A stretch of 47,120 bases of DNA from the UHGV virus genome UHGV-0008871; one strand, written 5' to 3'. The stretch comes from a virus. Shown here one piece after another: positions 6,931 through 45,434 of the stretch (its first letter is position 1; the number at the start of each line of letters is the position of its first letter). The notes under the pieces are model-generated. The model searched no databases and was not told where the DNA came from. It worked only from the letters and a program-made list of their open reading frames with translations. The translations under genes were made by a program, and so were the position numbers.

Positions 6931-7512
6931 ATGAACAACTCATGGTGGCAGGAACTAATGCATTTTTTCCTGCAAGGAATGACACTTAAACAGTTGATTC
7001 ATATGCTAATCATCCTAATCATATTGATTATTGTTATGCCTGTAAGCGTAAAAGAATGGATAAACCTGCATAATCCAGAAATCCTTCCTCATTACTGGAT
7101 GTATTACATCCTGTTGTTTTGCGTTAGCTATGTGCTTAACGGCGTTGTTAATTCCGCTTATCACGCTGTGACTGAAAGAATTGAGATATTCGCTGCTCAG
7201 AAGCGCAAATCTAAAGAAGAGAAATACGTGCAAGATTTGTTTGATTCGTTAACTCTTGGAGAAAGAGCGTATTTGGCATTCGCTGTAGCCGCTAATAACC
7301 AGCTAAAGACAGAAAAGGGAAGCCCTGAAGCAATCTCATTGCTCGAAAAAGGGCTTCTTATTCGGGTACCTTCTGCTACTGGATATCCTGAAATCGACCG
7401 TTTTGTTATCCCGGAACGCTATAGAAATGAGTGCTACATTAGGTTTGCTGGGAAGAAAGACAGTCTTATGGATGAACTTATCGCTCAGGATAAGCATGGC
7501 AAAAACAAGTAA
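6931..7512 (+). CDS. sieB: Superinfection exclusion protein B (193 aa, N-terminal membrane segment)
   Basis: Opposite orientation to the pL operon between ea10 and N, as lambda sieB; hydrophobic N-terminus (LIHMLIILIILIIVMPV). Confidence 0.7.
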   Translation: MNNSWWQELMHFFLQGMTLKQLIHMLIILIILIIVMPVSVKEWINLHNPEILPHYWMYYILLFCVSYVLNGVVNSAYHAVTERIEIFAAQKRKSKEEKYVQDLFDSLTLGERAYLAFAVAANNQLKTEKGSPEAISLLEKGLLIRVPSATGYPEIDRFVIPERYRNECYIRFAGKKDSLMDELIAQDKHGKNK

Positions 7513-11361: not shown

Positions 11362-11394
11362 AGGCCTGCTGGTAATCGCAGGCCTTTTTATTTG
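11362..11394 (+). terminator. Rho-independent terminator (tR2-like) between ren and ninB
   Basis: Perfect 8-bp stem aggcctgc/gcaggcct, 8-nt loop, followed by ttttta ttt. Confidence 0.8.
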
Positions 11395-11409
11395 GGGGAG
11401 AGGGAAGTC

Positions 11410-11850
11410 ATGAAAAAACTAACCTTTGAAATTCGATCTCCAGCACATCAGCAAAACGCTATTCACGCGGTACAGCAAATTCTTCCAGACCCAACCAAAC
11501 CAATCGTAGTAACCATTCAGGAACGCAACCGCAGCTTAGACCAGAATCGAAAGCTTTGGGCTTGCCTTGGTGACGTCTCTCGTCAGGTTGAATGGCATGG
11601 TCGCTGGCTGGATGCAGAAAGCTGGAAGTGTGTGTTTACCGCAGCATTAAAGCAGCAGGATGTTGTTCCTAACCTTGCCGGGAATGGCTTTGTGGTAATA
11701 GGCCAGTCAACCAGCAGGATGCGTGTAGGCGAATTTGCGGAGCTATTAGAGCTTATACAGGCATTCGGTACAGAACGTGGCGTTAAGTGGTCAGACGAAG
11801 CGCGACTGGCTCTCGAATGGAAAGCGCGATGGGGAGATCGGGCTGCATGA
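11410..11850 (+). CDS. ninB: NinB (Orf-family recombination protein), 146 aa
   Basis: MKKLTFEIRSPAHQQNAIHAVQQILPDPTKPIVVTIQERNRSLDQNRKLWACLGDVSRQVEW…; start at the internal Met of the track ORF. Confidence 0.9.
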   Translation: MKKLTFEIRSPAHQQNAIHAVQQILPDPTKPIVVTIQERNRSLDQNRKLWACLGDVSRQVEWHGRWLDAESWKCVFTAALKQQDVVPNLAGNGFVVIGQSTSRMRVGEFAELLELIQAFGTERGVKWSDEARLALEWKARWGDRAA

Positions 11851-12374
11851 CTATCAAATCAAATACGCCAGCACACGACAAGGACTGCTGGCAAACGCCG
11901 CTTTGGCTTTTTGATGCACTGGATATTGAGTTTGGATTCTGGCTGGATTCGGCAGCGAGCGACAAAAATGCTCTGTGTGCTCACTGGCTAACTGAGGCCG
12001 ACGACGCGCTCAATTCTGAGTGGGTAAGCCACGGTGCAATCTGGAATAACCCACCGTACAGCAATATCAGGCCGTGGGTGGAAAAAGCCGCTGAGCAGTG
12101 CATACAACAGCGACAGACGGTAGTTATGCTTGTGCCAGAGGATATGTCAGTCGGATGGTTCAGCAAGGCTCTGGAGAGTGTCGACGAAGTTCGCATTATC
12201 ACTGATGGACGGATTAATTTTATCGAACCATCGACAGGGCTGGAGAAGAAGGGAAACAGCAAAGGCTCCATGCTGCTGATTTGGCGACCGTTCATCAGTC
12301 CTCGACGGATGTTTACTACCGTATCCAAAGCGGCATTGATGGCGATCGGGCAGGGCGTCAGGAGGGCGGCATGA
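11847..12374 (+). CDS. Phage N6-adenine DNA methyltransferase, orphan (no partner restriction gene nearby), 175 aa
   Basis: NPPY catalytic motif ([10 protein letters not shown]); ATGA overlap with the ninB stop; occupies the lambda ninC/ninD position. Confidence 0.8.
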
Positions 12375-12547
12375 GGCGACAGCGACGAAGTTTCACCGAC
12401 ATCATCTGCGAAAACTGCAAATACCTTCCAACGAAACGCTCCAGAAATAAACGCAAGCCAATCCCAAAAGAATCTGACGTAAAAACCTTCAACTACACGG
12501 CTCACCTGTGGGATATCCGGTGGCTAAGACATCGTGCGAGGAAATGA
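12371..12547 (+). CDS. ninE: NinE (58 aa)
   Basis: [58 protein letters not shown]; ATGA overlap with the methyltransferase stop. Confidence 0.85.
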
Positions 12548-12951
12548 CAATGCTTTTAATTCAACCAGGATTTGGCCTTAGCATCAAAAAAGGGCACATG
12601 TTTGGCGAGAAAGAATCTCAACGAAAAATGGTGTCGATACAGTTGCCATTTATCAGTATTTATTGGCTAAACAGGGAGGCAACAAATTATTGGTATACAT
12701 GCGCCAGAGCAGCATTTAACGACCCTGACTGGTTTGTGAAAAACCACCACGCAGTTCGTCAGGCAAAGAGAAAGGCCAATACGACATACATGAAGGCGTA
12801 TCGAAAAGCATGGAAAGAACACCGCGATCGATACCAGCAAGATATGGAAAAGCTTGAATCAGAAAACATGGAATTAAGACGAAAGCTTGGTGAAGCAAAA
12901 CGAGACATTGATGCTTACAAGCGACTTTTTAATGGTGAAAGCCATGCTTAG
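12544..12951 (+). CDS. Hypothetical nin-region protein with basic coiled-coil C-terminus (135 aa)
   Basis: Translationally coupled on both sides (ATGA overlap with ninE; overlaps the ninF start); lower-GC 5' part; no family recognised. Confidence 0.5.
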
Positions 12952-13129
12952 TCCATCCCAATCTCTTCAATACCAGAAAGAAAGCGTCGAGCGGGCTTTA
13001 ACGTGCGCTAACTGCGGTCAGAAGCTGCATGTGCTGGAAGTTCACGTGTGTGAGCGTTGTATATATGAATGCTTAAATATGGTGGAACATAATGAGAAAT
13101 ATAAGCAACATAGACGAATTAAGAAATAA
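12944..13129 (+). pseudogene. ninF: ninF disrupted: first 37 codons of NinF fused to a foreign AT-rich C-terminal tail
   Basis: [37 protein letters not shown] matches recalled lambda NinF, then diverges; the missing NinF C-terminus (…[19 protein letters not shown]) is encoded at 13597-13659 in another frame. Confidence 0.6.
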
Positions 13130-13598
13130 ATTATCATATGATGATGTTTTAGGTGTACTTAGATGGAAAGTGTCTCCTTCTAATAATGTTAAGGTTGGCA
13201 GTGTTGCTGGTTACATTAGGAGTGATGGTTATAGGATGTTAACTATCGATGGTGTAATTACTTATGCTCACCACGTTATATGGATGATAAATAATGGTGA
13301 GATTCCATTAGGGTATAAAATTGATCATATAAATGGAGTAAGGTCAGATAATAGGCTATCTAATCTTCGATTGGTTACACACCAACAGAATGCACAGAAC
13401 CAAAAGAGAAAAATAACCAATTCGTCAGGAGTGACTGGAGTATATTTCAATAAAGAGAGATGTAAGTGGATTGCGAATATATGCGTAGATGGGCGCACCA
13501 AATATCTTGGAATATTTGCTAGCATCATTGACGCTATTGCAGAAAGGAAGAGGGCAGAAAAAGAACTGGGTTTTCATGAAAACCATGGTAGACCATAA
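13092..13598 (+). CDS. HNH-family endonuclease, homing-endonuclease-like (168 aa)
   Basis: HNH motif IDHINGVRSDNRLSNLRLVTHQQN; markedly AT-rich relative to neighbours; sits inside ninF. Confidence 0.75.
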   Translation: MRNISNIDELRNKLSYDDVLGVLRWKVSPSNNVKVGSVAGYIRSDGYRMLTIDGVITYAHHVIWMINNGEIPLGYKIDHINGVRSDNRLSNLRLVTHQQNAQNQKRKITNSSGVTGVYFNKERCKWIANICVDGRTKYLGIFASIIDAIAERKRAEKELGFHENHGRP

Positions 13599-13651
13599 CT
13601 GCGCAGAACTGATGAGCGATCCGAATAGCTCAATGTACGAGGAAGAAGACG

Positions 13652-14263
13652 ATGGCTAAACCAGCGCGAAGACGATGTAAAAACGATGAATGTCGGGAAT
13701 GGTTTCACCCTGCATTCGCTAATCAGTGGTGGTGCTCTCCAGAGTGTGGAACCAAGATAGCACTCGAACGACGAAGTAAAGAACGCGAAAAAGCGGAAAA
13801 AGCAGCAGAGAAGAAACGACGACGAGAGGATCAGAAACAGAAAGATAAACTTAAGATTCGAAAACTCGCCTTAAAGCCCCGCAGTTACTGGATTAAACAA
13901 GCCCAACAAGCCGTAAACGCCTTCATCAGAGAAAGAGACCGCGACTTACCATGTATCTCGTGCGGAACGCTCACGTCTGCTCAGTGGGATGCCGGGCATT
14001 ACCGGACAACTGCTGCGGCACCTCAACTCCGATTTGATGAACGCAATATTCACAAGCAATGCGTGGTGTGCAACCAGCACAAAAGCGGAAATCTCGTTCC
14101 GTATCGCGTCGAACTGATTAACCGCATCGGGCAGGAAGCAGTAGACGAAATCGAATCAAACCATAACCGCCATCGCTGGACTGTCGAAGAGTGCAGGACC
14201 ATCAAGGCGGAGTATCAACAGAAACTTAAAAAACTGCGAAACAGCAGAAGTGAGGCTGCATGA
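13652..14263 (+). CDS. ninG: NinG (Rap-family recombination endonuclease), 203 aa
   Basis: [59 protein letters not shown]… matches recalled lambda NinG. Confidence 0.9.
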
Positions 14264-14931
14264 ATATCTACGAAAGAATTGATGGCAGCAAATACCGAAA
14301 TATTTGGGTAGTTGGCGATCTGCACGGATGCTACACGAACCTGATGAACAAACTGGATACGATTGGATTCGACAACAAAAAAGACCTGCTTATCTCGGTG
14401 GGCGATTTGGTTGATCGCGGTGCAGAGAACGTTGAATGCCTGGAATTAATCACATTCCCCTGGTTCAGAGCTGTACGTGGAAACCATGAGCACATGATGA
14501 TTGATGGCTTATCAGAGCGTGGAAACGTCAATCACTGGCTGCTTAATGGCGGTGTCTGGTTCTTTAATCTCGATTACGACAAAGAAATTCTGGCTAAAGC
14601 TCTTGCCCATAAAGCAGATGAACTTCCGTTAATCATCGAACTGGTGAGCAAAGGTAAAAAATATGTCATTTGCCACGCCGATTATCCTTGTGATGAATAC
14701 GAGTTTGGAAAGCCAGTTGATCATCAGCAGGTAATCTGGAACCGCGAACGAATCGGCAACTCACAAGACGGGATCGTGAAAGAAATCAAAGGCGCGGACA
14801 CGTTCATCTTTGGTCATACGCCAGCAGTGAAACCACTCAAATTTGCCAACCAGATGTATATCGATACCGGCGCAGTGTTCTGCGGAAACCTCACATTGAT
14901 TCAGGTACAGGGAGAAGGCGCGTGGGCATAA
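14260..14931 (+). CDS. ninI: NinI Ser/Thr protein phosphatase (lambda PPase-like), 223 aa
   Basis: Metallophosphatase motifs GDLHG, GDLVDRG, GNHE; no ninH between ninG and ninI. Confidence 0.85.
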
Positions 14932-15440
14932 GAGAACTAAACCTCACCAAAGAACAGCATGAGTGGCTGAATGGCTGGCTTGAACTGTGGGGCGCATGGG
15001 TTTATTCAGGTCGTCTGGAAAAGCGCATGAGCAGCGTAATAGCGAAGTTCATGGAGAGCGTAGAGCCGGGAAGAGTTATGACAAGGCCAATGTGTAATGA
15101 TGATGATGGAATGTTGATTTCTCAGGTCGTCGATTCCGTCATGTACATTGACAAGAAAGCCTTTGGCATCCTCCTAAGCTACTACGCTCATGGTTCATCT
15201 AAGCGAGCAATTGCATCCTACTATCACGCGACTGCAAAGCCACGCAAGATGTGTGGACGTGGTGGAGAGGGATGGAGAAAACCTTCACTGGCAACCTGTA
15301 GAAACGAAATTGACGACATCCTGAAAGCGTCATTATTTGTTTTATACCAGCCAATGCAAAATGCTTTTAAAATGCGTAAACGTGTTGAGAAAGTTAAGCA
15401 TGTTGCTGTTAAAAGCCTTGACATGCAATTATCCATTTAG
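14922..15440 (+). CDS. Putative late-gene antiterminator Q, non-lambda type (172 aa)
   Basis: Last gene before the late-operon leader and lysis cassette; not lambda Q in sequence; called by position only. Confidence 0.45.
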
Positions 15441-15502: not shown

Positions 15503-15577
15503 GGGTCAGTCGTATAAAGGTCATTACGGAAGGCTGTTAACCTTCTTATCGTGGTTCGAGTCCACGCTGTCCCGCCA
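15503..15577 (+). tRNA. Phage-encoded tRNA, anticodon GUU (Asn) by manual fold; slightly non-canonical
   Basis: Hand-folded cloverleaf: acceptor gggtcag/ctgtccc (one mismatch), anticodon stem gaagg/ccttc, loop ctGTTaa, T-arm cgtgg-ttcgagt-ccacg, CCA encoded; D-stem only 3 bp. Confidence 0.5.
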
Positions 15578-15582
15578 AACAT

Positions 15583-15658
15583 GCTGTTTTAGCTCCAATG
15601 GTAGAGCGGTCGCCTTGTAAGCGAATGGGTAGCGGTTCAAGTCCGTTAAACAGCACCA
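15583..15658 (+). tRNA. Phage-encoded tRNA, anticodon UGU (Thr) by manual fold
   Basis: Perfect 7-bp acceptor gctgttt/aaacagc, D-stem gctc/gagc, anticodon loop ctTGTaa, T-loop ttcaagt, CCA encoded. Confidence 0.65.
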
Positions 15659-20010: not shown

Positions 20011-21426
20011 ATGAACGAAGATGATATCGCAATCGGCAGTTGCTCGCCGGAGCTGATCACGCTCCTGGACAGCGATGACATTCAGCCGGGTATGTCGGCT
20101 GGCTATCAGACCTGCAAAACGATTTACCTCTTCCACCCGTTGGGCGGGAAAATGGTAGATCGCCCGATCAAGATGGCGATGAACGAGTCGCGCACGGTTC
20201 ACATTTCGCAGGCGTATGGCATTGAGCAGCGTCTCCGCGATGCATTTGAGCGGGAGTGGAAAGCACTGGGCGCCGATAAGCACATCGCTAATGCGGCGCG
20301 CATCTCTCGCATTTACGGTGTTTCGGCGATCGCAATGCTGGTTGATAACCAGGAGCCGTCCTCTGCGGTGGACTACCGCACGCTGTATAAGCACAACGTG
20401 ACATTCAACATTCTCGACCCGCTGAACACTGCCGGAAGCATCGTCCTGAACCAGGATCCGAACGCGCAGGACTTTCAGAAGGTCGACGGGATCAGAGTGG
20501 CGGGCAAGCCGTATCACAAATCCCGCTGTGTTGTGCAACAGAACGAGGACCCGATTTATCTGGCCTATAACTCTGCTGCCTTTGGCTTTACCGGTCGCAG
20601 CGTTTACCAGCGCGCTCTGTTCCCGCTGAAATCCTTCATCCAGACCATGCGCACCGATGACATGGTTTCCGTGAAGGGTGGCTTGCTGGTAACGAAGATT
20701 CAGGGACCTAGCTCAGTCGTCAACAACATGATGCAAAAGCTCAGCGGCATCAAACGAATGATGCTGAAGCGAGGGAAGACAGGCGAAGTCCTGCAGATCG
20801 GCGCAAATGACAGCATCGAATCCATCGACCTGAGCAACCTGGAAAAGCCGCTCGACTCCTCCCGGAATCACATTCTGGAGAATATCGCTGCGGCAGCTGA
20901 CATGCCGGCTATCATTCTGAACTCGGAAACATTCGCCCAGGGCTTCGGCGAGGGGACGGAAGACGCTCGATCTGTTGCAGTCTACATCGACAACATCCGC
21001 GAGTGGCTTGAGCCGCTGTATGACTATTTCATCCGTATTTGCCAGTATCGCGCCTGGAGCATTGAGTTTTTCAATTCTCTGCGTGCTGACTTCCCGGAGC
21101 TTAAAAACACGTACAGCCTGTATTTCTCCTCATGGATTAACAACTTCGAATATCGCTGGCCGTCATCCCTGAAAGAGCCGGAAAGCGAAAAAGTGAAGGT
21201 CGACGAAATCCGCTTTAAGGCCATCGTCAGCATGCTGGAAGTCCTTCTCCCGCAGGTCAACACGGATGATGAGAACCGCGCGCTTCTTATCGAGTGGGCG
21301 CAGACCAACGCGAACGCTAACGAAAGCCTGTTCCCGCAGCGACTTGATCTCGATATCGACTCGTTAAAGGCTAACCGGCCTGAACAGCCACGGGATGAAG
21401 AGCCCGGCGGCGGGATGATGCTATGA
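20011..21426 (+). CDS. Portal protein (putative), 471 aa
   Basis: Gene following the large terminase, size typical of portal proteins; acidic C-terminus. Confidence 0.65.
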   Translation: MNEDDIAIGSCSPELITLLDSDDIQPGMSAGYQTCKTIYLFHPLGGKMVDRPIKMAMNESRTVHISQAYGIEQRLRDAFEREWKALGADKHIANAARISRIYGVSAIAMLVDNQEPSSAVDYRTLYKHNVTFNILDPLNTAGSIVLNQDPNAQDFQKVDGIRVAGKPYHKSRCVVQQNEDPIYLAYNSAAFGFTGRSVYQRALFPLKSFIQTMRTDDMVSVKGGLLVTKIQGPSSVVNNMMQKLSGIKRMMLKRGKTGEVLQIGANDSIESIDLSNLEKPLDSSRNHILENIAAAADMPAIILNSETFAQGFGEGTEDARSVAVYIDNIREWLEPLYDYFIRICQYRAWSIEFFNSLRADFPELKNTYSLYFSSWINNFEYRWPSSLKEPESEKVKVDEIRFKAIVSMLEVLLPQVNTDDENRALLIEWAQTNANANESLFPQRLDLDIDSLKANRPEQPRDEEPGGGMML

Positions 21427-22256: not shown

Positions 22257-23870
22257 GTGGCTATTTTTGGCAGCGGGATAATGTTCCGTCAGGGGAAGTT
22301 CGTCTTCCTGATCCAGCGCTCGGATGATGGCACATGGTGCCAGCCGGGCGGGACGATAGAGCCGGGAGAGTTAGCCATAGACGCCGCACGGCGCGAGGTG
22401 CTGGAGGAAACAGGCTATCAGTACGATGGCCCGCTGACGCCGCACAGCGTACATGGTGACTACCTGACCTACCGCGCCGACGTGCCGGAGCAATTCGAAG
22501 CGAAGATAAACGACGAATCGCTGGCCGCCGGATGGTTCCATATTGAAGATCTGCCAAAGCCGCTTCATCAGCCATTCGCTGAAATGCTGGCGCAGCAGGC
22601 GCTCAACGAAACCGACGTGGCCGCGCTCATCGCTGACGGAACGCTCAGCAGCCCGCAATATTTTTACAACATGTGGATGTTCGCCATCCGGGTGACCGGA
22701 ACAGGGGTTACCTGGCGATCTGCAGATCAGGAGATGACGTTCCGTAACCCGGACGACTATCTCACCCCTGAATTTCTCCAGCGGGTAGCTGGCGTACCAC
22801 TTATCTGGCTTCACCCCGAAAAAAGAACACTTGATAGCGACGAGTTCTCAAAGCGCGTTATTGGCACCCTGACAAATGCCTGGGTTGCCGATAAGGGCGA
22901 AGTGTGGGCCGTTGCGCGTGTGTACGACGCCGAAGCTGCTGAAATTATGGCAACAAGGCAATTAAGCACCTCGCCAACTGTGAAGTTCTCAGAGGTTGCT
23001 CAATCAATCATTGTCGACGGTCAGCCTCTACTGGTGGAGCCATCCCCCGAGCTGCTCGACCACGTTGCAATTTGTGAACAGGGCGTGTGGGACAAGCTCC
23101 TTGCCCCTACCGGTGTTAAATCTGATTCCATTCCTGAAGAGGCTGAAAAGATGGACGAGGAAAAAATCGTAGCGCTGATTAATAAGGCGATCGATGCGCG
23201 TTTGGCTAAGGCCGACGAAGAGAAGGAAGCGAAAGCCAAGGCTGACGCCGAAGAGGCCGCCAAGAAAGAAAAGGCTGACGCAGAAGACAAAGAAGCGGAA
23301 GAGGCGAAAGCTAAAGCCGACGCGGAAGAGAAAGCCGCGAAGGAAAAAGCTGATGCTGAAGCCAAAGAAAAGGCGGATGCCGAAGAGGCTGAGAAAATGG
23401 CAAAAGAAAAAGCCGACTCTCAAATCCTCCAGGAAATTGCTGAGCTTCGCTCCCGCATTCCTACCGAACTGAGCGACGAAGAGCGCAACGAAGTTGCAGA
23501 AGCGCAGGTGAAAGCCGATAGCGTCTTCTCCAGCTTTGGCAAACGCGCCCCGATCCCGCTGTCCGGTGAAAAACCGATGGCGTATCGCCGCCGTCTGATG
23601 ATTCAACTGCAGGAGCATTCTCCGGACTACAAAGCCGTCGATCTCTCTGCCATCGCTGATTCTCAACTGCTGAGCACTGCCGAAAAGCATATCTACGCTG
23701 ATGCGCAGAAGGCGGCCAGCCTGTCAGTTGGTCCCGGTATGCTGCGCGAGATTAAGCGCGCCGATGCAACCGGTCGCCAGATCAGCACCTTTGAAGGCGA
23801 TCCCGCCGTCACCTGGGCGCCGTTCCAGTCTGGCAAGCGTCAGGTCACCAGTTTTAACAACCAGGCTTAA
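22257..23870 (+). CDS. Head scaffold-like protein with N-terminal Nudix hydrolase domain and internal Lys/Ala/Glu/Asp-rich repeat region (537 aa)
   Basis: Canonical Nudix box [23 protein letters not shown] (GX5EX7REUXEEXGU) at residues ~30-53; KADAEE-type repeats at residues ~315-380; position between head morphogenesis and capsid genes. Confidence 0.6.
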
Positions 23871-37915: not shown

Positions 37916-37964
37916 TTAAAAGGCCGCGCTTGCGGTTTTTTTATTGCCTAATCCCGGAGGATAC

Positions 37965-40900
37965 ATGGCACTAACCCTTTTGGCTACAAACAACGCAGAA
38001 AGCACGCTGGCTTCTGCTATCAGCGCAACCGACACGTCGCTGATCGTTAGCGCTGGAACTGGTGCCGAGTTCCCTGATGCTGTGGCAGGCGAGAGTTACT
38101 TTAAGCTCACTCTCACCGATGCCGCCACCGGCTCACAGGTTGAGATCGTGAACGTGACAGCTAAGGCCGGAGACATCTTCACGATTGAACGTGCGCAAGA
38201 AGGAACGCTGGCGCGTGCGTGGGCGGCCAACGACATGGTTGCCAACATGATGACGGCGGATACGCTGAACATTATCGCTCAATATGCCCAGCAGGCAGCT
38301 GCATCAGCAGATCAGGCAATTGAGGCTGCTAATAACGCCTCTGAATACGCAAAGAACAAATACACATTCTATAAGACTGCCAGCGATCCTGATGGCACCA
38401 TTGCAGGGTTGGCAGCAACTACTGACGGCCAGTCGTTCTGGGTAGCTCAGGGGCCAGATGCGCTTTCTGCTGCATGGCAGTATCAAAACAATGCTGGCGT
38501 GGCCGTGTTGCAGGCCAAGCAGCCAGGGACAGCGGCCATAACAGGGACAATCCGCGAGTTTCCGACGCTGGCTGCGGCGCAGGCAGACGCAGCTGCGGGT
38601 AATATACCGGTGGGATCAACTGCTTATTATCGCAGCTCAGATGACAATAATCTTTCAATTGAGGTTATCAATACCGCTGGTACGTTGGTAGCAACCGGAA
38701 GAAAAATTCCAGCGTATTCCGCTTTGCGTAGAGGCAACATTTTATTCGACGCATTTAATGAATATTCCTCAAGCCTTTTAACATTCGCTAACTGGGATTG
38801 GTATAAAGGCGCTACGCCAACATTTTCTACTACTGATGTTAATTTGCCGCTTCCAACACCTGTTATTCAAGCTTCTGGTGTAACATCGTTTGATAAATAT
38901 TACGATGTGTCAAAATTACAGGTAAAACCAGGAGACACTTTAGCTTTCTCTGTTTTGGTATGGTTCGAGAACGCTGGAGGCAAGTTACAGATTTATTGGC
39001 TTGATTCAGCAGGAGTAACCATCACTACAGGGGAGGCCTCTCCACTGGTTGCTGGTATATCTTCGCCGGTTGTGGTCATTGCTGTGCCATCTGGCGCATC
39101 ATCCATACGAATTCGGGTGCAAAACACTGTGTCAGGGGCGTTCAAAATCGGTGCCTATGCCGCAGCTATTGGTGATGTTACTCCTGAATTCACAAGGTCT
39201 TTCCCTTCAAAAGCGTACCAGGAGGCATTGGGTACCCCTGATAACCTCGTGTACGATCCTTTTGGCGAGATGCTTTCCGTTCGCCCTAAGCAAGGACTCC
39301 CAGCAGGCGTGGTTGACGCCATGAGTTACGCAGGAACATTGATTCAGAACAGCGCAAATTCACCATGGGGTAAGACCGGGATCCAAAACACGTCAGGAGT
39401 TGGTGCTGATCGTATTATTTCTCTCAGTTCGATGGGGGTTAAGCCGGGAGACACAATCACTGTCCGTCTGGCTGCATGGTTCGCGTCAACGGGTGGCACG
39501 TTTCAGGTTTTCTGTCGTAATGCATCCGGAGTACTTTCTTCGGCAACTATTGCCGCATCAGCATCCGGCTTTAATGATGGAAGTACCACGCTGACAATAC
39601 CAGCATCAACGACATACCTTACGCTTCGCGCATCAGGGGCTATGGTCAAGGAGCTGGTTGCCATAGGTGTAGCTTTCGGACGATCTCGCCCTGAGTTTAT
39701 TTACGGTAGCCTTCCAGCAGAGTATTCAGGATACCAGCGCCAGCAGATTAACCTGTGGCCTGATCCCTGGTATCGCCGCTACGAGTGCGGGGAAACGTGT
39801 ATTGATGGTTGGGGTCCTGCTCAAGTAGCAGGGGTTTCACTACCAGCATATGTTGCGGATTATTCTGGCAGCCCGTTTCTTAGGAAAAAATCTCTGATTA
39901 TCCCAGTAGGTGGTGGTCAGACGGATATTAACATTTCAGCAAAGCGGCTTGGACTGCGTGCTGGAGATTCGCTGACAGTAGCGCTGGGTGTGGTATCGTC
40001 TCAGGCAATCAACGTGGCAGCATATTTCCGGACGGCTAGCGGGACTGTTATTAGTGACAGTTCGTCTCAGTTGTTCCAGTTCCCAACCCAGCAATATCAG
40101 ACTCTGGTTCGCACAATAGCTATCACCCAGACTATTGTTGATACGGCTGGATATCTGCAAATCCGCCTTATGAATGGGCAGACTGTTGGCGCTGCAGGTG
40201 TTTATGTTGTTGCCAGGGGGCTCTTTGTTGGGAATGGCTCTCCTGTACTGAGTGATGATACGTACCGACAGGATGTCGATTACACAACTTCCAGAGCATT
40301 CACGTTAAATCAGGATTCACTCAGAGAGACACATAAGCGCCTGATGAACAGGCGGCTTTCTCAGTCAGCAACACTGGTAACAGCGCACATTGGCGATAGC
40401 TGGACTCACCTGTGGAACCGATGGAGCGGAATTTTTGCCGGAAAAATGCAGGCTGACTATGGCAGTGCAGGTATCGGCTATATCGGATTTGGCTATCCGT
40501 CTGAGGCGGGTTTCGGGCAGTATAACGGCAATATACTTGGTCAGATAACTTTGACCAAAACAGGAACATGGACGCCGACATATGCGGCAGCACAGAGCGC
40601 AGATATTTGTAGCGTCTCGTCTTCTGATACCACCGCTACTTTCAGGGCGAACGGTATACCGGCAAATGCATCGTCAGTCCGCCTTTTTGCTAAACCTCAG
40701 GGGAGTGTTAAATACAGCACAGATGGTGGAGTTAACTGGACAACTATCGACCTGAGCACGTTCACTGACCTTGCGGTTGTCAGCCTCACGGTACCGGCAA
40801 CAGCTTTCAATATCTGGTTCAGTCCGGTATCAGGAACCGTTGAACTGTACGGTCTGGATGTGCAGACCGCGACAGATGGTGTCCGGTCTCACAAGCTGGG

Positions 40901-41354
40901 TGCGACGGGGAGTTCTGCTCAACAATGGGCGGCGCAGGTTACCAGCGCAACATGGAAAGCAGCATTCACCGCGCTGGCCCCCAATCTGGTGACAATTCTG
41001 CATGGGACCAATGACCAGACATCATCCCGTGATCCATCCGCGTTTGCTGCCGATATTCAGACGATAATCACAGCAGTTCGCACTGCATGCCCGTTGGCTG
41101 ATGTTCTGGTGATCATGCCATGTGAAAACCAGAGGAATAACAATGTGGCAATGGCGGCGTATGCGTCTGTTGTACGGGATGTTTGTGCGCTAAACAGGGT
41201 GGCTTATCACAATCTCCAGATTGACTACGGAGACAAGCCATCTGATTACGCATCGACATCTCCACGCAACTGGTTCAATGCTGATGGAATCCATCCTGAC
41301 CCTGCAACTGGAGGTGGGCTGCCGATCGTTTCTGCTGTTTTGAAGTTAATGTAA
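37965..41354 (+). CDS. Long tail fibre: conserved N-terminal anchor domain, three internal ~110-aa repeats, C-terminal SGNH/GDSL-type esterase-like domain (1129 aa from Met at 37965)
   Basis: RBS ggagg before ATG 37965; SGNH blocks HIGDSWT, HGTND and DGIHPD in the last ~330 aa; N-terminus homologous to the second fibre. Confidence 0.75.
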   Translation: MALTLLATNNAESTLASAISATDTSLIVSAGTGAEFPDAVAGESYFKLTLTDAATGSQVEIVNVTAKAGDIFTIERAQEGTLARAWAANDMVANMMTADTLNIIAQYAQQAAASADQAIEAANNASEYAKNKYTFYKTASDPDGTIAGLAATTDGQSFWVAQGPDALSAAWQYQNNAGVAVLQAKQPGTAAITGTIREFPTLAAAQADAAAGNIPVGSTAYYRSSDDNNLSIEVINTAGTLVATGRKIPAYSALRRGNILFDAFNEYSSSLLTFANWDWYKGATPTFSTTDVNLPLPTPVIQASGVTSFDKYYDVSKLQVKPGDTLAFSVLVWFENAGGKLQIYWLDSAGVTITTGEASPLVAGISSPVVVIAVPSGASSIRIRVQNTVSGAFKIGAYAAAIGDVTPEFTRSFPSKAYQEALGTPDNLVYDPFGEMLSVRPKQGLPAGVVDAMSYAGTLIQNSANSPWGKTGIQNTSGVGADRIISLSSMGVKPGDTITVRLAAWFASTGGTFQVFCRNASGVLSSATIAASASGFNDGSTTLTIPASTTYLTLRASGAMVKELVAIGVAFGRSRPEFIYGSLPAEYSGYQRQQINLWPDPWYRRYECGETCIDGWGPAQVAGVSLPAYVADYSGSPFLRKKSLIIPVGGGQTDINISAKRLGLRAGDSLTVALGVVSSQAINVAAYFRTASGTVISDSSSQLFQFPTQQYQTLVRTIAITQTIVDTAGYLQIRLMNGQTVGAAGVYVVARGLFVGNGSPVLSDDTYRQDVDYTTSRAFTLNQDSLRETHKRLMNRRLSQSATLVTAHIGDSWTHLWNRWSGIFAGKMQADYGSAGIGYIGFGYPSEAGFGQYNGNILGQITLTKTGTWTPTYAAAQSADICSVSSSDTTATFRANGIPANASSVRLFAKPQGSVKYSTDGGVNWTTIDLSTFTDLAVVSLTVPATAFNIWFSPVSGTVELYGLDVQTATDGVRSHKLGATGSSAQQWAAQVTSATWKAAFTALAPNLVTILHGTNDQTSSRDPSAFAADIQTIITAVRTACPLADVLVIMPCENQRNNNVAMAAYASVVRDVCALNRVAYHNLQIDYGDKPSDYASTSPRNWFNADGIHPDPATGGGLPIVSAVLKLM

Positions 41355-43029: not shown

Positions 43030-44226
43030 TTACACTCCTGCACGACCATCGATGTAATCAGCCCACCATTGCATCATTTCTCTGCGCTTATCGAGATACT
43101 GAGCATGGTTGTAAATTCCACGTACAGATCCGCCGTTGGCATGTGCCAGCTGCACTTCAATAGCGTCAGCAGGCCATTCGTGCTCGTTCATAATCGTGCT
43201 GAATTCATGCCTGAATCCGTGACCGCTTTCCAGACCTTCATAGCCGATTTGTTTGATCACAAGCAATACCGCGTTCTCGCAGATTGGCTTCTTCTTATCG
43301 TTGCGCCCGGCAAAAACAAACTCTGAGACTGGTTTGGTGATTGAGCTTAGCGTAGTGAGAAGTTCAACCACCTGGTCTGACATCGGGACCACATGAATTT
43401 TGCGTCCCTTCATCACACTGGCGTCGATGGTGATAATCCTGTTTTCAAAATCGACGTTCTTCCATAGCATGGAACGAAGCTCTTTTGTTCTTAGGGCTGT
43501 GTAGCGTAAAACTTTGGTCGCAATGAGCGATACGATACTTCCTGAAAATGTTGCAAGTGCTTTGTTGAATGCCGGGATCTGGTCGGCAGGTAAAAACGGG
43601 AAGTTCTTCTTGCGGTATCCCTTCATGGCGTCAGCAAGGTCAGGTGCCGGGTTATATTTAGCCCTACCAGTGACAATAGCGTAACGGAAAACCTCGCCGC
43701 ATCTTCTGCGGGCTTTGTTGGCTCGCTCCATTGCACCGCGATCTTCAAATCTGCGGATTACTTCCAGCAGTTGCATCGGCTCAATATCCTGAATTTCAAG
43801 GCCGCCGATGATAGGTAAAATGTCGTCATCAAACATTTTTGCAAGTTCAGTCGCATACCCTACTGACCATACTTGCTTCTTGTGCTCGTACCATTCCTTG
43901 TAAATCGCACTAAAGGAATTGTTGTTAGACGAAGCCTTTTTCGCCTTTACCGGATCGATGCCAACCGAGATGTCTTTCCTCGCAGTCCATGCCTTATCCC
44001 TTGCTTCCTGCAAAGTCATAAGCGGATATTTTCCGACGGTCAGGATTTTCTCCTTACCGTCAATCTTGTAGCGAAGCTGCCATACCTTTTTCCCTGACAC
44101 AGGGACATAAAGGTACAGGCCATTACCATCGAGAAGGCGGTATGGTTTTTCTTTCGGCTTTGCTGCTTCAATCTGCTTAACGGTGAGCATGGGTAAAAAT
44201 CCGGTGGGTAAAATTATTTTATCCAC
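43030..44226 (-). CDS. intS: Tyrosine integrase, P4/IntS-type (398 aa; alternative start at 44190)
   Basis: Adjacent to the tRNA-Arg gene; catalytic HGFRH…Y region; matches my recollection of E. coli IntS (CPS-53/KplE1). Confidence 0.85.
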   Translation of the reverse strand: MDKIILPTGFLPMLTVKQIEAAKPKEKPYRLLDGNGLYLYVPVSGKKVWQLRYKIDGKEKILTVGKYPLMTLQEARDKAWTARKDISVGIDPVKAKKASSNNNSFSAIYKEWYEHKKQVWSVGYATELAKMFDDDILPIIGGLEIQDIEPMQLLEVIRRFEDRGAMERANKARRRCGEVFRYAIVTGRAKYNPAPDLADAMKGYRKKNFPFLPADQIPAFNKALATFSGSIVSLIATKVLRYTALRTKELRSMLWKNVDFENRIITIDASVMKGRKIHVVPMSDQVVELLTTLSSITKPVSEFVFAGRNDKKKPICENAVLLVIKQIGYEGLESGHGFRHEFSTIMNEHEWPADAIEVQLAHANGGSVRGIYNHAQYLDKRREMMQWWADYIDGRAGV

Positions 44227-44351: not shown

Positions 44352-44426
44352 TGGTGTCCCCTGCAGGAATCGAACCTGCAATTAGCCCTTAGGAGGGGCT
44401 CGTTATATCCATTTAACTAAGAGGAC
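44352..44426 (-). tRNA. argW: tRNA-Arg (anticodon CCU), prophage integration target
   Basis: Hand-folded cloverleaf from the minus strand: GTCCTCTTAGTTAAATGGATATAACGAGCCCCTCCTAAGGGCTAATTGCAGGTTCGATTCCTGCAGGGGACACCA; last 15 nt repeated at 442-456. Confidence 0.85.
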
Positions 44427-44501: not shown

Positions 44502-45434
44502 TTATGCCGGGTTTTTATAATTTTTCTTAATGTTTTCCGCACGTTCTGCTTTTTGGCGTGCTTCTGCTTTACGCTTATTGCTCATGTCGTTACGAATCTG
44601 TGCATGACTCATTAACGCGAAGATAAAGGTGCCGCCGCAGATGTTCCCCGCTAAAGTAGGTAGTGCGAAGGGCCAGATGAAATCGCTCCAGTGCAGCGTG
44701 CCGTTAAACACCAGATAGAGGATTTCAACAGAACCGACAACGATGTGGGTGGTGTCACCCAGTGCAATAAGCCAGGTCATCAATATAATCACCACAATCT
44801 TTGCCGCACCCGCAGCAGGAAACATCCAAACCATAGTGGCGATCAGCCAGCCGGAAATGATCGCGTTGGCAAACATCTCGCTGGGGGTGTTCTTCATCAC
44901 ATCCATGCCGATTTTGACAAATGCATCGCGAGTTTCTTCATTGAAGATAGGCATATATTCAAATGCCCATGCAGCAATACCTGTCCCGAGAATATTACCC
45001 AGCAGCACGACGCCCCATAATCGCATAAGTAAGCCGACGTTGCTCATTGTCGGTTTTTGCATGACGGGTAGTACCGCAGTCACGGTGTTTTCGGTAAATA
45101 ATTGCTGGCGGGCCATAATGACGATAATAAAACCAAAGGTATAACCGAGATTCTCCAGTAAGAAGCTGCCTGGCACTCCTTCCAGTTCGACATGAAATAT
45201 CCCTTTTGCCAGTAGCGAAGCGCCCATCGACAGACCCGCCGCAATGGCTGACCACAGTAGCGCCATTGCGTCGCGTTCCAGCTCTTTTTCACCATCCTGG
45301 CGGATATGCTCATGAATTGCCATCGCCCGGGAGGGGAGTCGATCTTCATCTATTTCTATTTTTTTGCCGCGCTCTTTTTCTTCGCTCTCAACTTCAATTT
45401 CGTCGCTGTGTTGATCAATTTTGTCGTTGTCCAT
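44502..45434 (-). CDS. yfdC: Formate/nitrite-transporter-family inner membrane protein YfdC (host gene), 310 aa
   Basis: Multi-TM protein matching my recollection of E. coli yfdC, the chromosomal neighbour of argW. Confidence 0.8.
   Translation of the reverse strand: MDNDKIDQHSDEIEVESEEKERGKKIEIDEDRLPSRAMAIHEHIRQDGEKELERDAMALLWSAIAAGLSMGASLLAKGIFHVELEGVPGSFLLENLGYTFGFIIVIMARQQLFTENTVTAVLPVMQKPTMSNVGLLMRLWGVVLLGNILGTGIAAWAFEYMPIFNEETRDAFVKIGMDVMKNTPSEMFANAIISGWLIATMVWMFPAAGAAKIVVIILMTWLIALGDTTHIVVGSVEILYLVFNGTLHWSDFIWPFALPTLAGNICGGTFIFALMSHAQIRNDMSNKRKAEARQKAERAENIKKNYKNPA

Follow-up and report, generated by a model that had tools for sequence, protein, structure and literature searches.

Work on homing endonuclease genes (HEGs) has concentrated on virulent phages, such as T4, SPO1 and ICP1, and most of the known examples are located between genes or within introns and inteins. 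Free-standing HNH HEGs that split host genes have nevertheless been described, namely mobE, located in nrdA of Aeromonas phage Aeh1, and mobA, located in the topoisomerase gene (39/60) of T4 (PMC2988022), and these two are the closest functional parallels of the element that we analyze here, a 539-nt cassette that interrupts the ninF gene of UHGV virus genome UHGV-0008871. The stretch of DNA analyzed (hereafter, the window) comprises 47,120 nt and is a P22/Sf6-like lambdoid prophage of Escherichia coli located beside tRNA-Arg(CCT). The combined evidence on anatomy, protein family and distribution leads us to conclude, with a probability of roughly 0.85, that the insert is a free-standing HNH-AP2 homing endonuclease gene residing within the ninF coding sequence of a P22/lambda-like prophage. 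The initial annotation of the locus had already proposed that a free-standing endonuclease of the homing type invaded ninF, and this proposal is upheld by the cleanness of the insertion, by the HNH-AP2 family membership of the encoded protein and by the finding that intact ninF is far more common than the interrupted form.

As with mobE and mobA, the HNH gene is located inside a coding gene without any intron or intein, the open reading frames (ORFs) are separate, and there is an overlap with the upstream ORF (PMC2988022, PMC10448857). The two situations differ in the nature of the target: in Aeh1, it is an essential enzyme gene, the halves of which reassemble into a working enzyme, whereas ninF has just 58 codons, belongs to a region that a temperate phage can do without, and has a 3' piece that is probably not expressed. 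Moreover, mobE and mobA have been described as transposition-like, one-off insertions, whereas the ninF element recurs at one site in many backgrounds.

At the protein level, the best structural match is I-HmuI of Bacillus phage SPO1 (PDB 1u3e), an enzyme that nicks one strand; the HNH motifs of the two proteins align, and both match Pfam HNH_3. I-HmuI is encoded in a group I intron, and the C-terminal domain of the ninF-insert protein instead matched AP2/ERF domains; the overall identity between the two is approximately 21%. The combination of HNH and AP2 domains is a described homing-endonuclease architecture (PMC10448857, citing Magnani et al. 2004). In particular, the 'IPA-HNH' HEGs of phage ICP1 share with the ninF insert an HNH domain at the N-terminal end and an AP2 domain at the C-terminal end and likewise occur in phage genomes, often in several copies (PMC10448857). 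However, the ICP1 proteins are too divergent to be recognized by the Pfam HNH_3 profile (PMC10448857), whereas the ninF-insert protein matches it strongly; furthermore, the latter is only about 50% identical to the closest relatives found, a sister copy with 85% identity apart. Another HNH-containing insertion in a phage protein-coding gene is reported by its authors to be actively homing; compared with that insertion, the ninF insert differs in being out of frame (its length is 3n+2) and in having its own start and stop codons.

In the literature on ninF with HNH endonucleases and on free-standing homing endonucleases in lambdoid phages, we found no description of a ninF-targeting element. 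The class to which the element belongs is already well known, and the understanding of how such elements work is unchanged by the ninF example; it is the ninF-targeting member itself that is new to the literature searched. This member is a minimal, 539-bp HEG cassette inside a coding sequence of temperate lambdoid phages, and its natural copies, in 44 E. coli genomes and 29 IMG/VR contigs, suffice to read the transfer signature from population data. In addition, given that the target is conserved across lambdoid ninF alleles, homing, tract length and self-immunity could all be approached by standard lambdoid-phage genetics.

Anatomy of the interrupted ninF gene

The ninF reading frame begins with the ATG at 12944 (some annotations start it upstream, at the in-frame ATG at 12911), and its first 37 codons match the uninterrupted NinF of phages HK630, PA28 and Louie in the alignment. 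The 5' segment covers the complete Pfam NinF profile (E = 6.4e-12, profile positions 1-25 of 25). The junctions of the insert were fixed by anchoring the alignment from each side, with 121 intact alleles used for comparison. DNA identity with the intact alleles stops at 13055; the next two positions, 13056-13057, are GT in place of AC, which changes codon 38 from CAC (His) to CGT (Arg), and the TG at 13058-13059 is shared again. The insertion point is within the Cys codon 39, between TG and C, and the first T of the insert remakes this codon as TGT, so that the 5' ORF retains all four zinc-ribbon cysteines (C21, C24, C36 and C39). At the other end, the last bases of the insert are the stop codon of the HNH ORF (TAA, 13596-13598), after which the DNA continues as C, TGC GCA GAA CTG ..., encoding the 19 C-terminal residues of NinF. 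Taking out exactly 539 nt restores the 58-codon ninF, and the sequence around the insertion site in intact ninF is GTGTGTGAGCACTGCTGCGCAGAACTG. The base composition of the insert is foreign, judging from a GC content of 0.35 compared with 0.46 in the flanks and 0.51 in the window.

The initial annotation had placed 37 intact NinF codons ahead of an AT-rich segment with a 168-aa HNH ORF (13092-13598) and had read the missing NinF C-terminus directly after the HNH stop codon, in another frame and with the overlap between the ninF stop and the ninG start. The alignment to intact nin alleles bears out this description in full: it shows a clean insertion at 13060-13598 with no target-site duplication, followed by the 3' remnant of ninF (13599-13659), the stop codon of which overlaps the ninG ATG (13652) as it does in intact phages. 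The change of frame is a consequence of the 3n+2 length of the insert and not an additional anomaly.

Translation from the ninF start codon is predicted to run into the insert and to yield a chimeric, truncated product, NinF' (Table 1), the stop codon of which (13127-13129) lies beyond the HNH start codon, giving an overlap of 38 nt between the two ORFs. The 22-residue, insert-coded tail of NinF' is probably incidental because it is not conserved in the sister lineage represented by contig L154 (IYVLLNAGDDHEDNN; see below). A NinF-HNH fusion produced by frameshifting was considered and rejected: the HNH frame has a stop codon at 13074-13076, and no slippery site was seen in the 38-nt overlap. 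The leader of the cassette does not vary across 31 copies. A scan of 12400-14300 for promoters and terminators yielded counts at or below chance; a terminator-like hairpin at 13040-13055 that is followed by the T-rich start of the insert is not above expectation either. Since neither the cassette nor the sequence immediately upstream has an above-chance promoter match, lysogens are unlikely to express the gene.

The 3' remnant has in-frame ATGs at 13576 and 13585 (both within the HNH ORF), 13612 and 13633, and none of the four is preceded by a convincing ribosome-binding site. In other genomes, PGAP calls a 27-aa 'NinF' from the position equivalent to 13576. Upstream of the remnant, the ninF 3' frame runs on without a stop codon through 36 codons of the terminal part of the HNH gene (open frame 13489-13659), for which the rough chance expectation in AT-rich DNA is about 7%, that is, not significant. 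RefSeq lists the arrangement as 'NinF', 'HNH endonuclease' and 'NinF' without marking it as one interrupted gene, which is a point of practical relevance for annotation.

The encoded endonuclease

The ORF of the insert encodes a protein that consists of an N-terminal beta-strand region, an HNH_3 core (residues 58-102) and an AP2-like DNA-binding domain (approximately residues 112-160). The match of the core to Pfam HNH_3 is strong and covers nearly the whole profile (70.1 bits, the cut-off being 24.8; E = 1.2e-19; positions 2-46 of the 46 in the profile), and the protein also matches PHROG 99, 'HNH endonuclease' (3.4e-70). The match to Pfam AP2 is below threshold (15.4 bits against 33.3, E = 0.024); a precomputed PF00847 hit is present on several homologues. 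Among 70 homologues, the motif residues D78, N91, R93 and N103 are invariant, and H79, N87 and N100 are conserved in at least 90%; the HNH motif aligns with the segment 'vDHkdGnkdNNlstNLRwVTqkiNveNq' of I-HmuI.

A confident AlphaFold2 model built on the alignment of homologues has a predicted local distance difference test score (pLDDT) of 92.3. In this model, strands 75-79 and 92-96 followed by a helix (97-101) are seen at the beta-beta-alpha-metal motif, and the C-terminal domain consists of strands 117-120, 125-132 and 135-142 together with a helix at 145-159. The best PDB match of the model in a Foldseek search is I-HmuI (1u3e, probability 1.00), whereas the C-terminal domain matches the plant AP2/ERF domains of TEM1, AtERF1 and WRI1 (probability 0.97-1.00), with a root-mean-square deviation of 1.7-3.1 Å over 50-59 alignment columns for TEM1 and AtERF1. 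Relatives detected with tblastn are present in 3,805 phage records, often several per genome; some of these are annotated as homing endonucleases, and the best is approximately 50% identical. Judging from the profile matches and the predicted fold, the insert protein is an HNH-AP2 endonuclease, a member of a family that is annotated and described as homing endonucleases.

Distribution and transfer signature

A 546-nt insert query was compared with 5,426 complete E. coli genomes and was found at 47 places in 45 of them. Forty-four of these places, in 44 genomes, are full-length copies with at least 98.2% identity, all under a ninF annotation, and two are halves of a single copy that is split by an IS3-family element in Eco_70239 (L168:263-1491). 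Strain FXCREC035 (NZ_CM135826.1) has two query places, one being the ninF copy (L170:4001-4546) and the other not located within 4 kb of it. Every E. coli copy that could be placed is inside ninF. Strains E2348/69 and B7A are among the carriers, with copies of 99.5-100% identity. When genomes with a place covering at least 80% of a 177-nt ninF query were counted, at least 1,451 E. coli genomes had ninF, so that about one in four E. coli genomes has the target and intact ninF is by far the commoner state (at least 1,451 ninF genomes against 44 with the insert). In IMG/VR, the insert is carried by 29 contigs and intact ninF by more than 120.

The left junction is the same in 31 of the 31 loci that have the leader pattern, and also in the further metagenome copies wherever the contig reaches it. 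A metagenome scan with a 20-mer common to both lineages of the insert recovered five more copies of the main lineage and six chance matches, and no new lineage. In a protein-pattern scan of one genome per species (GTDB), there were 63 pattern matches, none of which was confirmed; thus, L154 apart, there is no evidence of the element outside E. coli-type hosts.

The population data show a presence/absence polymorphism at one fixed site: the insert is found on at least 20 flank haplotypes, among which there are two unrelated ninF 5' ends and several differing genes both upstream and downstream, and intact alleles exist on the same haplotypes. The insert itself is nearly uniform. It measures 539 nt in 26 loci, with one further locus at 540 nt; the copies differ from that of the window at 0-5 of 539 positions, and their diversity is 0.0054. 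By contrast, the flanks are as diverse among interrupted alleles as among intact ones, with values of 0.034 and 0.030, respectively, and 0.033 between the classes for positions -80 to -24, and of 0.026, 0.023 and 0.025 for positions +21 to +56.

Of the informative flanking sites, only the GT dinucleotide at positions -4/-3 from the insert separates the two classes. The hexamer GAGCGT is present in 31 of 31 interrupted alleles, whereas the intact alleles have GAGCAC (115) or GAGTAC (6); each of the 30 interrupted alleles that were scored for association has GT, and not one of the 121 intact alleles does (Fisher p = 2.5e-32). At the nearest informative sites beyond this dinucleotide, -42, -66, +34 and +38, there is no significant allele difference between interrupted and intact copies. 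Complete linkage at -4/-3 next to unlinked neighboring sites is compatible with very short conversion tracts but is no proof of them. Footprint alleles, that is, intact ninF with CGT, were found neither in the 5,426 E. coli genomes nor in IMG/VR, so that neither precise excision nor a CGT target predating the insert is indicated. A young and uniform insert, old and diverse flanks and exchange points within a few tens of nucleotides of one site together make up the pattern expected of break-initiated copying. Part of the flank diversity is surely due to general mosaic recombination, but this does not easily account for the tight boundaries. Thus, the distribution pattern suggests that the cassette copies itself into intact ninF genes.

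Selection on the nuclease gene and a sister copy

Within the main lineage, the polymorphisms of the nuclease ORF comprise 12 synonymous changes at 105 sites and 8 non-synonymous changes at 399 sites, and the ORF is intact in 27 of the 28 complete IMG/VR copies. A relative with 85% identity (P0002) is encoded on L154, a Logan contig of 909 nt, where the insert is located at exactly the same point of a diverged ninF (...IHVCEKC/IY..., with the slash at the insertion point), codon 38 of which encodes Lys. The L154 insert likewise starts with TATATATG and has a 32-nt leader. Between the nuclease genes of the window and L154, synonymous divergence (dS) is 1.24 and the ratio of non-synonymous to synonymous divergence (dN/dS) is 0.07, which, at the same site, indicates that the nuclease has been kept functional over a long association with this site. 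By these measures, the nuclease ORF is under purifying selection.

In L154, 27 nt are missing across the 3' junction, and these comprise the stop codon of the nuclease and six ninF codons (CAELMS); as a result, the nuclease ORF reads through the ninF remnant in another frame and ends at the start of a ybcO-like gene. This deletion, together with the lack of conservation of the NinF' tail, argues against the retention of the ninF pieces as a working split gene. The ybcO-like gene downstream in L154 shares no more than about 74% identity with those of E. coli and Shigella. A search of IMG/VR for the empty site of the L154 ninF lineage did not find it; the two matches obtained were chance matches in unrelated genes.

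Alternative explanations

One alternative is that the cassette arrived once, by illegitimate recombination, and has since been an immobile passenger that is spread by ordinary homologous exchange of the ninF module, with a nuclease that no longer homes. Several observations weigh against a mobile HEG, and some of them also speak for this possibility. The argument for mobility is drawn wholly from the distribution of the copies, and lambdoid phages recombine heavily: mosaicism is pronounced in their nin regions, and the breakpoints at gene boundaries in the flanks are the same among intact alleles. The insert is rare, being present in 44 of 5,426 genomes and in 44 of about 1,450 ninF-bearing E. 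coli genomes, and a DNA search with the insert among the 50,697 phage records of INPHARED gave no match; all known cases of the arrangement come from prophages or from viral contigs of metagenomes. In strain 14EC007, a single insert accompanies two ninF places, so that the second resident ninF may have escaped conversion. The GT/AC difference, for its part, might simply have hitch-hiked with the insert without conferring immunity. Moreover, degenerate copies exist: in an IMG/VR copy (L145), a 1-nt insertion truncates the nuclease ORF to 86 aa, and the Eco_70239 copy is broken by its IS3-family element, although these two decayed copies also fit the usual degeneration phase of homing endonuclease genes. 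On the other side, the strong purifying selection, both within the lineage and in the comparison with L154, is hard to explain for a nuclease without a function. Furthermore, the association of the insert with its flanks is gone within 34-66 nt at an insert diversity of 0.5%, which under passive spread would require many exchanges near one point, and the second, old lineage is located at exactly the same nucleotide position in a diverged ninF. Given these findings, we consider an immobile passenger to be an unlikely explanation.

Another possibility, compatible with a HEG in ninF, is that the gene continues to function in pieces, either through two translated NinF fragments or through the N-terminal zinc ribbon alone. 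There are precedents, such as nrdA split by mobE in Aeromonas phage Aeh1 (PMC2988022), and the 5' ORF of the interrupted gene retains the complete Pfam NinF motif with its four cysteines; in addition, the main-lineage copies show no damage to the 3' remnant, which still overlaps the ninG start. However, the main lineage is too young, given its diversity of 0.5%, for an undamaged remnant to reveal selection, no convincing ribosome-binding site precedes the in-frame ATGs of the remnant, and the insert-coded tail of the 5' ORF differs between lineages. Moreover, L154 lacks six of the remnant codons, and its nuclease ORF runs through the others in another frame. Continued function of a divided ninF appears improbable to us.

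Also compatible with a HEG is the idea that the nuclease primarily serves as a weapon which cuts the ninF of co-infecting or co-induced lambdoid phages and excludes their markers, the copying of the gene being a by-product. In T-even phages, free-standing HEGs are established agents of marker exclusion (PMC2988022); in addition, about a quarter of E. coli genomes have the target, and the nuclease is under purifying selection. The low frequency of the element nevertheless argues against a strong advantage, and, in the light of the promoter scan, the nuclease is unlikely to be expressed in lysogens; we give little credence to a role of this kind.

The initial annotation had rejected an intein and had judged a group I intron improbable, and both judgments hold. 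A self-splicing intron (group I or II) that carries the endonuclease ORF and is spliced to restore the ninF mRNA is very improbable and not supported: excision of exactly 539 nt does give back the ninF frame, some phages have introns that encode HNH endonucleases of the same catalytic family (such as I-HmuI, which gave the top structural match), and the insert RNA folds marginally better than shuffled sequences (z = -1.85, with 4 of 100 shuffles as good), but a scan of 12700-13900 on both strands against Rfam, group I and II intron models included, gave no match at E ≤ 10, only 32 nt of the insert are outside the ORF and the insert ends on the ORF stop codon, the 5' flank ends in ...CGTTG and the insert in ...CCATAA (junctions from the 121 intact alleles), with G and A where a group I intron has U and G, and L154 has lost the 3' junction along with six ninF codons while its nuclease ORF is intact, which would be unexpected if splicing mattered. 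An intein is rejected given the 3n+2 length, the stop codon that the ninF frame meets after 22 insert-coded codons and the content of the nuclease ORF, in which Pfam recognizes only HNH_3 and a weak AP2. Similarly, an insertion sequence or transposon is rejected: the insert ends do not form terminal inverted repeats (at best, 13 of 40 bases match between them), the junctions lack a target-site duplication, and Pfam detects no transposase domain in the nuclease ORF.

Proposed mechanism

Under the interpretation that we favor, a free-standing HNH-AP2 HEG within ninF, the cassette would be transcribed with the rest of the nin region because it has no above-chance promoter match of its own. In lambda, the nin region is part of the delayed-early rightward transcript. 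The putative ribosome-binding site of the nuclease gene, GGTGGA (13081-13086), would be part of the translated sequence at the 3' end of the NinF' ORF. If the same cell also harbors, during lytic growth, a phage or prophage with intact ninF, the enzyme would recognize the sequence of codons 36-42 (GTGTGTGAGCACTG^CTGCGCAGAACTG) and would nick or cut the intact ninF near it; recombinational repair from the HEG-bearing allele would then copy in the cassette along with the adjacent GT that replaces His38 by Arg. The HEG-bearing allele would be immune to its own enzyme, with the two half-sites 539 nt apart and two bases changed. The proposed target is among the most conserved stretches of ninF, as a 41-nt pattern with only six free positions matched more than 120 IMG/VR contigs, and residence in a conserved stretch is usual for HEGs.

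As for the interrupted gene, we see no indication that ninF is made whole again, whether in the RNA or in the protein. In lambda, ninF is within the dispensable nin region (the lambda nin deletion), and the interruption is therefore probably tolerated rather than compensated.

We tentatively hypothesize, while regarding the complete scenario as doubtful, that the element is engaged in active and possibly nick-initiated homing, in which it passes between infecting phages and lambdoid prophages and the converted tracts stay below about 35-65 bp, and that His38Arg is a self-immunity mutation. Should this be the case, the conservation of the target across lambdoid ninF, including that of HK630 (genus Lambdavirus), would make the system a tractable temperate-phage model of mosaic boundaries that are seeded by HEGs.

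Genomic setting of the cassette

The features of the cassette and its surroundings are collected in Table 1. The window has its integrase gene next to tRNA-Arg(CCT), and in the related locus L169 a torI-type gene is annotated near the left end (530-730); integrase and excisionase genes at opposite prophage ends match the pattern of argW-integrated prophages of the KplE1/HK620/Sf6 type.

Table 1. Features of the interrupted ninF gene and of the rest of the window (positions in the window)
Feature	Position	Strand	Remarks
ninF 5' segment	12944-13059	+	codons 1-38 and two bases of Cys codon 39; whole Pfam NinF zinc-ribbon motif
Chimeric truncated NinF' ORF	12944-13129	+	61 aa: 39 NinF-derived residues (with His38Arg) and 22 insert-coded residues (IYECLNMVEHNEKYKQHRRIKK)
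GT dinucleotide	13056-13057	+	positions -4/-3 from insert; codon 38 CAC to CGT, His38Arg
Insert (cassette)	13060-13598	+	exactly 539 nt = 3 x 179 + 2
Cassette leader	13060-13091	+	32 nt; Shine-Dalgarno-like GGTGGA at 13081-13086, 5 nt before ATG
HNH-AP2 endonuclease ORF	13092-13598	+	168 aa
Orphaned ninF 3' remnant	13599-13659	+	last base of codon 39, codons 40-58 and stop (13657-13659)
ninG	13652-14263	+	Pfam NinG 1.8e-90; ATG overlaps ninF stop as in intact phages
Early, immunity and replication genes	about 0.5-11 kb		
SieB superinfection-exclusion homologue	6931-7512	+	Pfam SieB 1.1e-25; immunity region
nin region	11.4-15.4 kb		
Q, two tRNAs, lysis, terminase, portal, head and tail genes, large GDSL-esterase-domain tail protein			in this order after the nin region
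Q antiterminator ORF	14922-15440		upstream of the tRNA pair
tRNA-Asn(GTT)	15503-15577	+	just downstream of Q ORF, upstream of lysis genes
tRNA-Thr(TGT)	15583-15658	+	just downstream of Q ORF, upstream of lysis genes
Portal ORF	20011-21426	+	Pfam Phage_portal_3 2.2e-20
537-aa ORF, head-gene module	22257-23870	+	N-terminal NUDIX hydrolase domain, residues 9-112, E 3.1e-16, the one assigned part of the protein
1,136-aa tail protein	37944-41354	+	C-terminal GDSL-like esterase domain, residues 980-1121, E 6.1e-14
Integrase	43030-44226	-	tyrosine integrase; host genes at right end of window
tRNA-Arg(CCT)	44352-44426	-	adjoins integrase
Formate/nitrite transporter family protein	44502-45434		host-type gene
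MlaA	45728-46483		host-type gene

Endonuclease genes of several unrelated kinds seem to have a hot spot in the nin region. In a closely related prophage with intact ninF, that of E. coli elppa10, a different protein of endonuclease type, with 200 aa and a NUMOD4 domain, is encoded between ninB and the Dam methylase gene (L169:11745-12347), whereas ninB and dam directly abut in the window (11392-12374), without this NUMOD4 gene. Furthermore, HNH genes are located directly 3' of ninF in phage Louie (L004:1814-2591) and in strains CH4794, STEC1588 and 14EC007.

Gene content in the vicinity of the cassette varies in other respects as well. The window has no ninH, and an ORF for a NinI-type Ser/Thr phosphatase (14260-14931) directly follows ninG; in the otherwise similar locus L001, ninH is present between ninG and the phosphatase gene. 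The tRNA-Asn(GTT)/tRNA-Thr(TGT) pair downstream of Q is also annotated in strain FXCREC035.

Some of the genes of the head and tail modules deserve a brief comment. A close homologue of the portal ORF is named 'anti-CBASS protein Acb1 family protein' in RefSeq, which looks like a naming problem rather than an anti-defence gene. The head-gene module is an unusual position for a NUDIX enzyme such as that predicted for the 537-aa ORF. Finally, the large tail protein with the GDSL-like esterase domain could be a tailspike that acts on a polysaccharide of the host surface.

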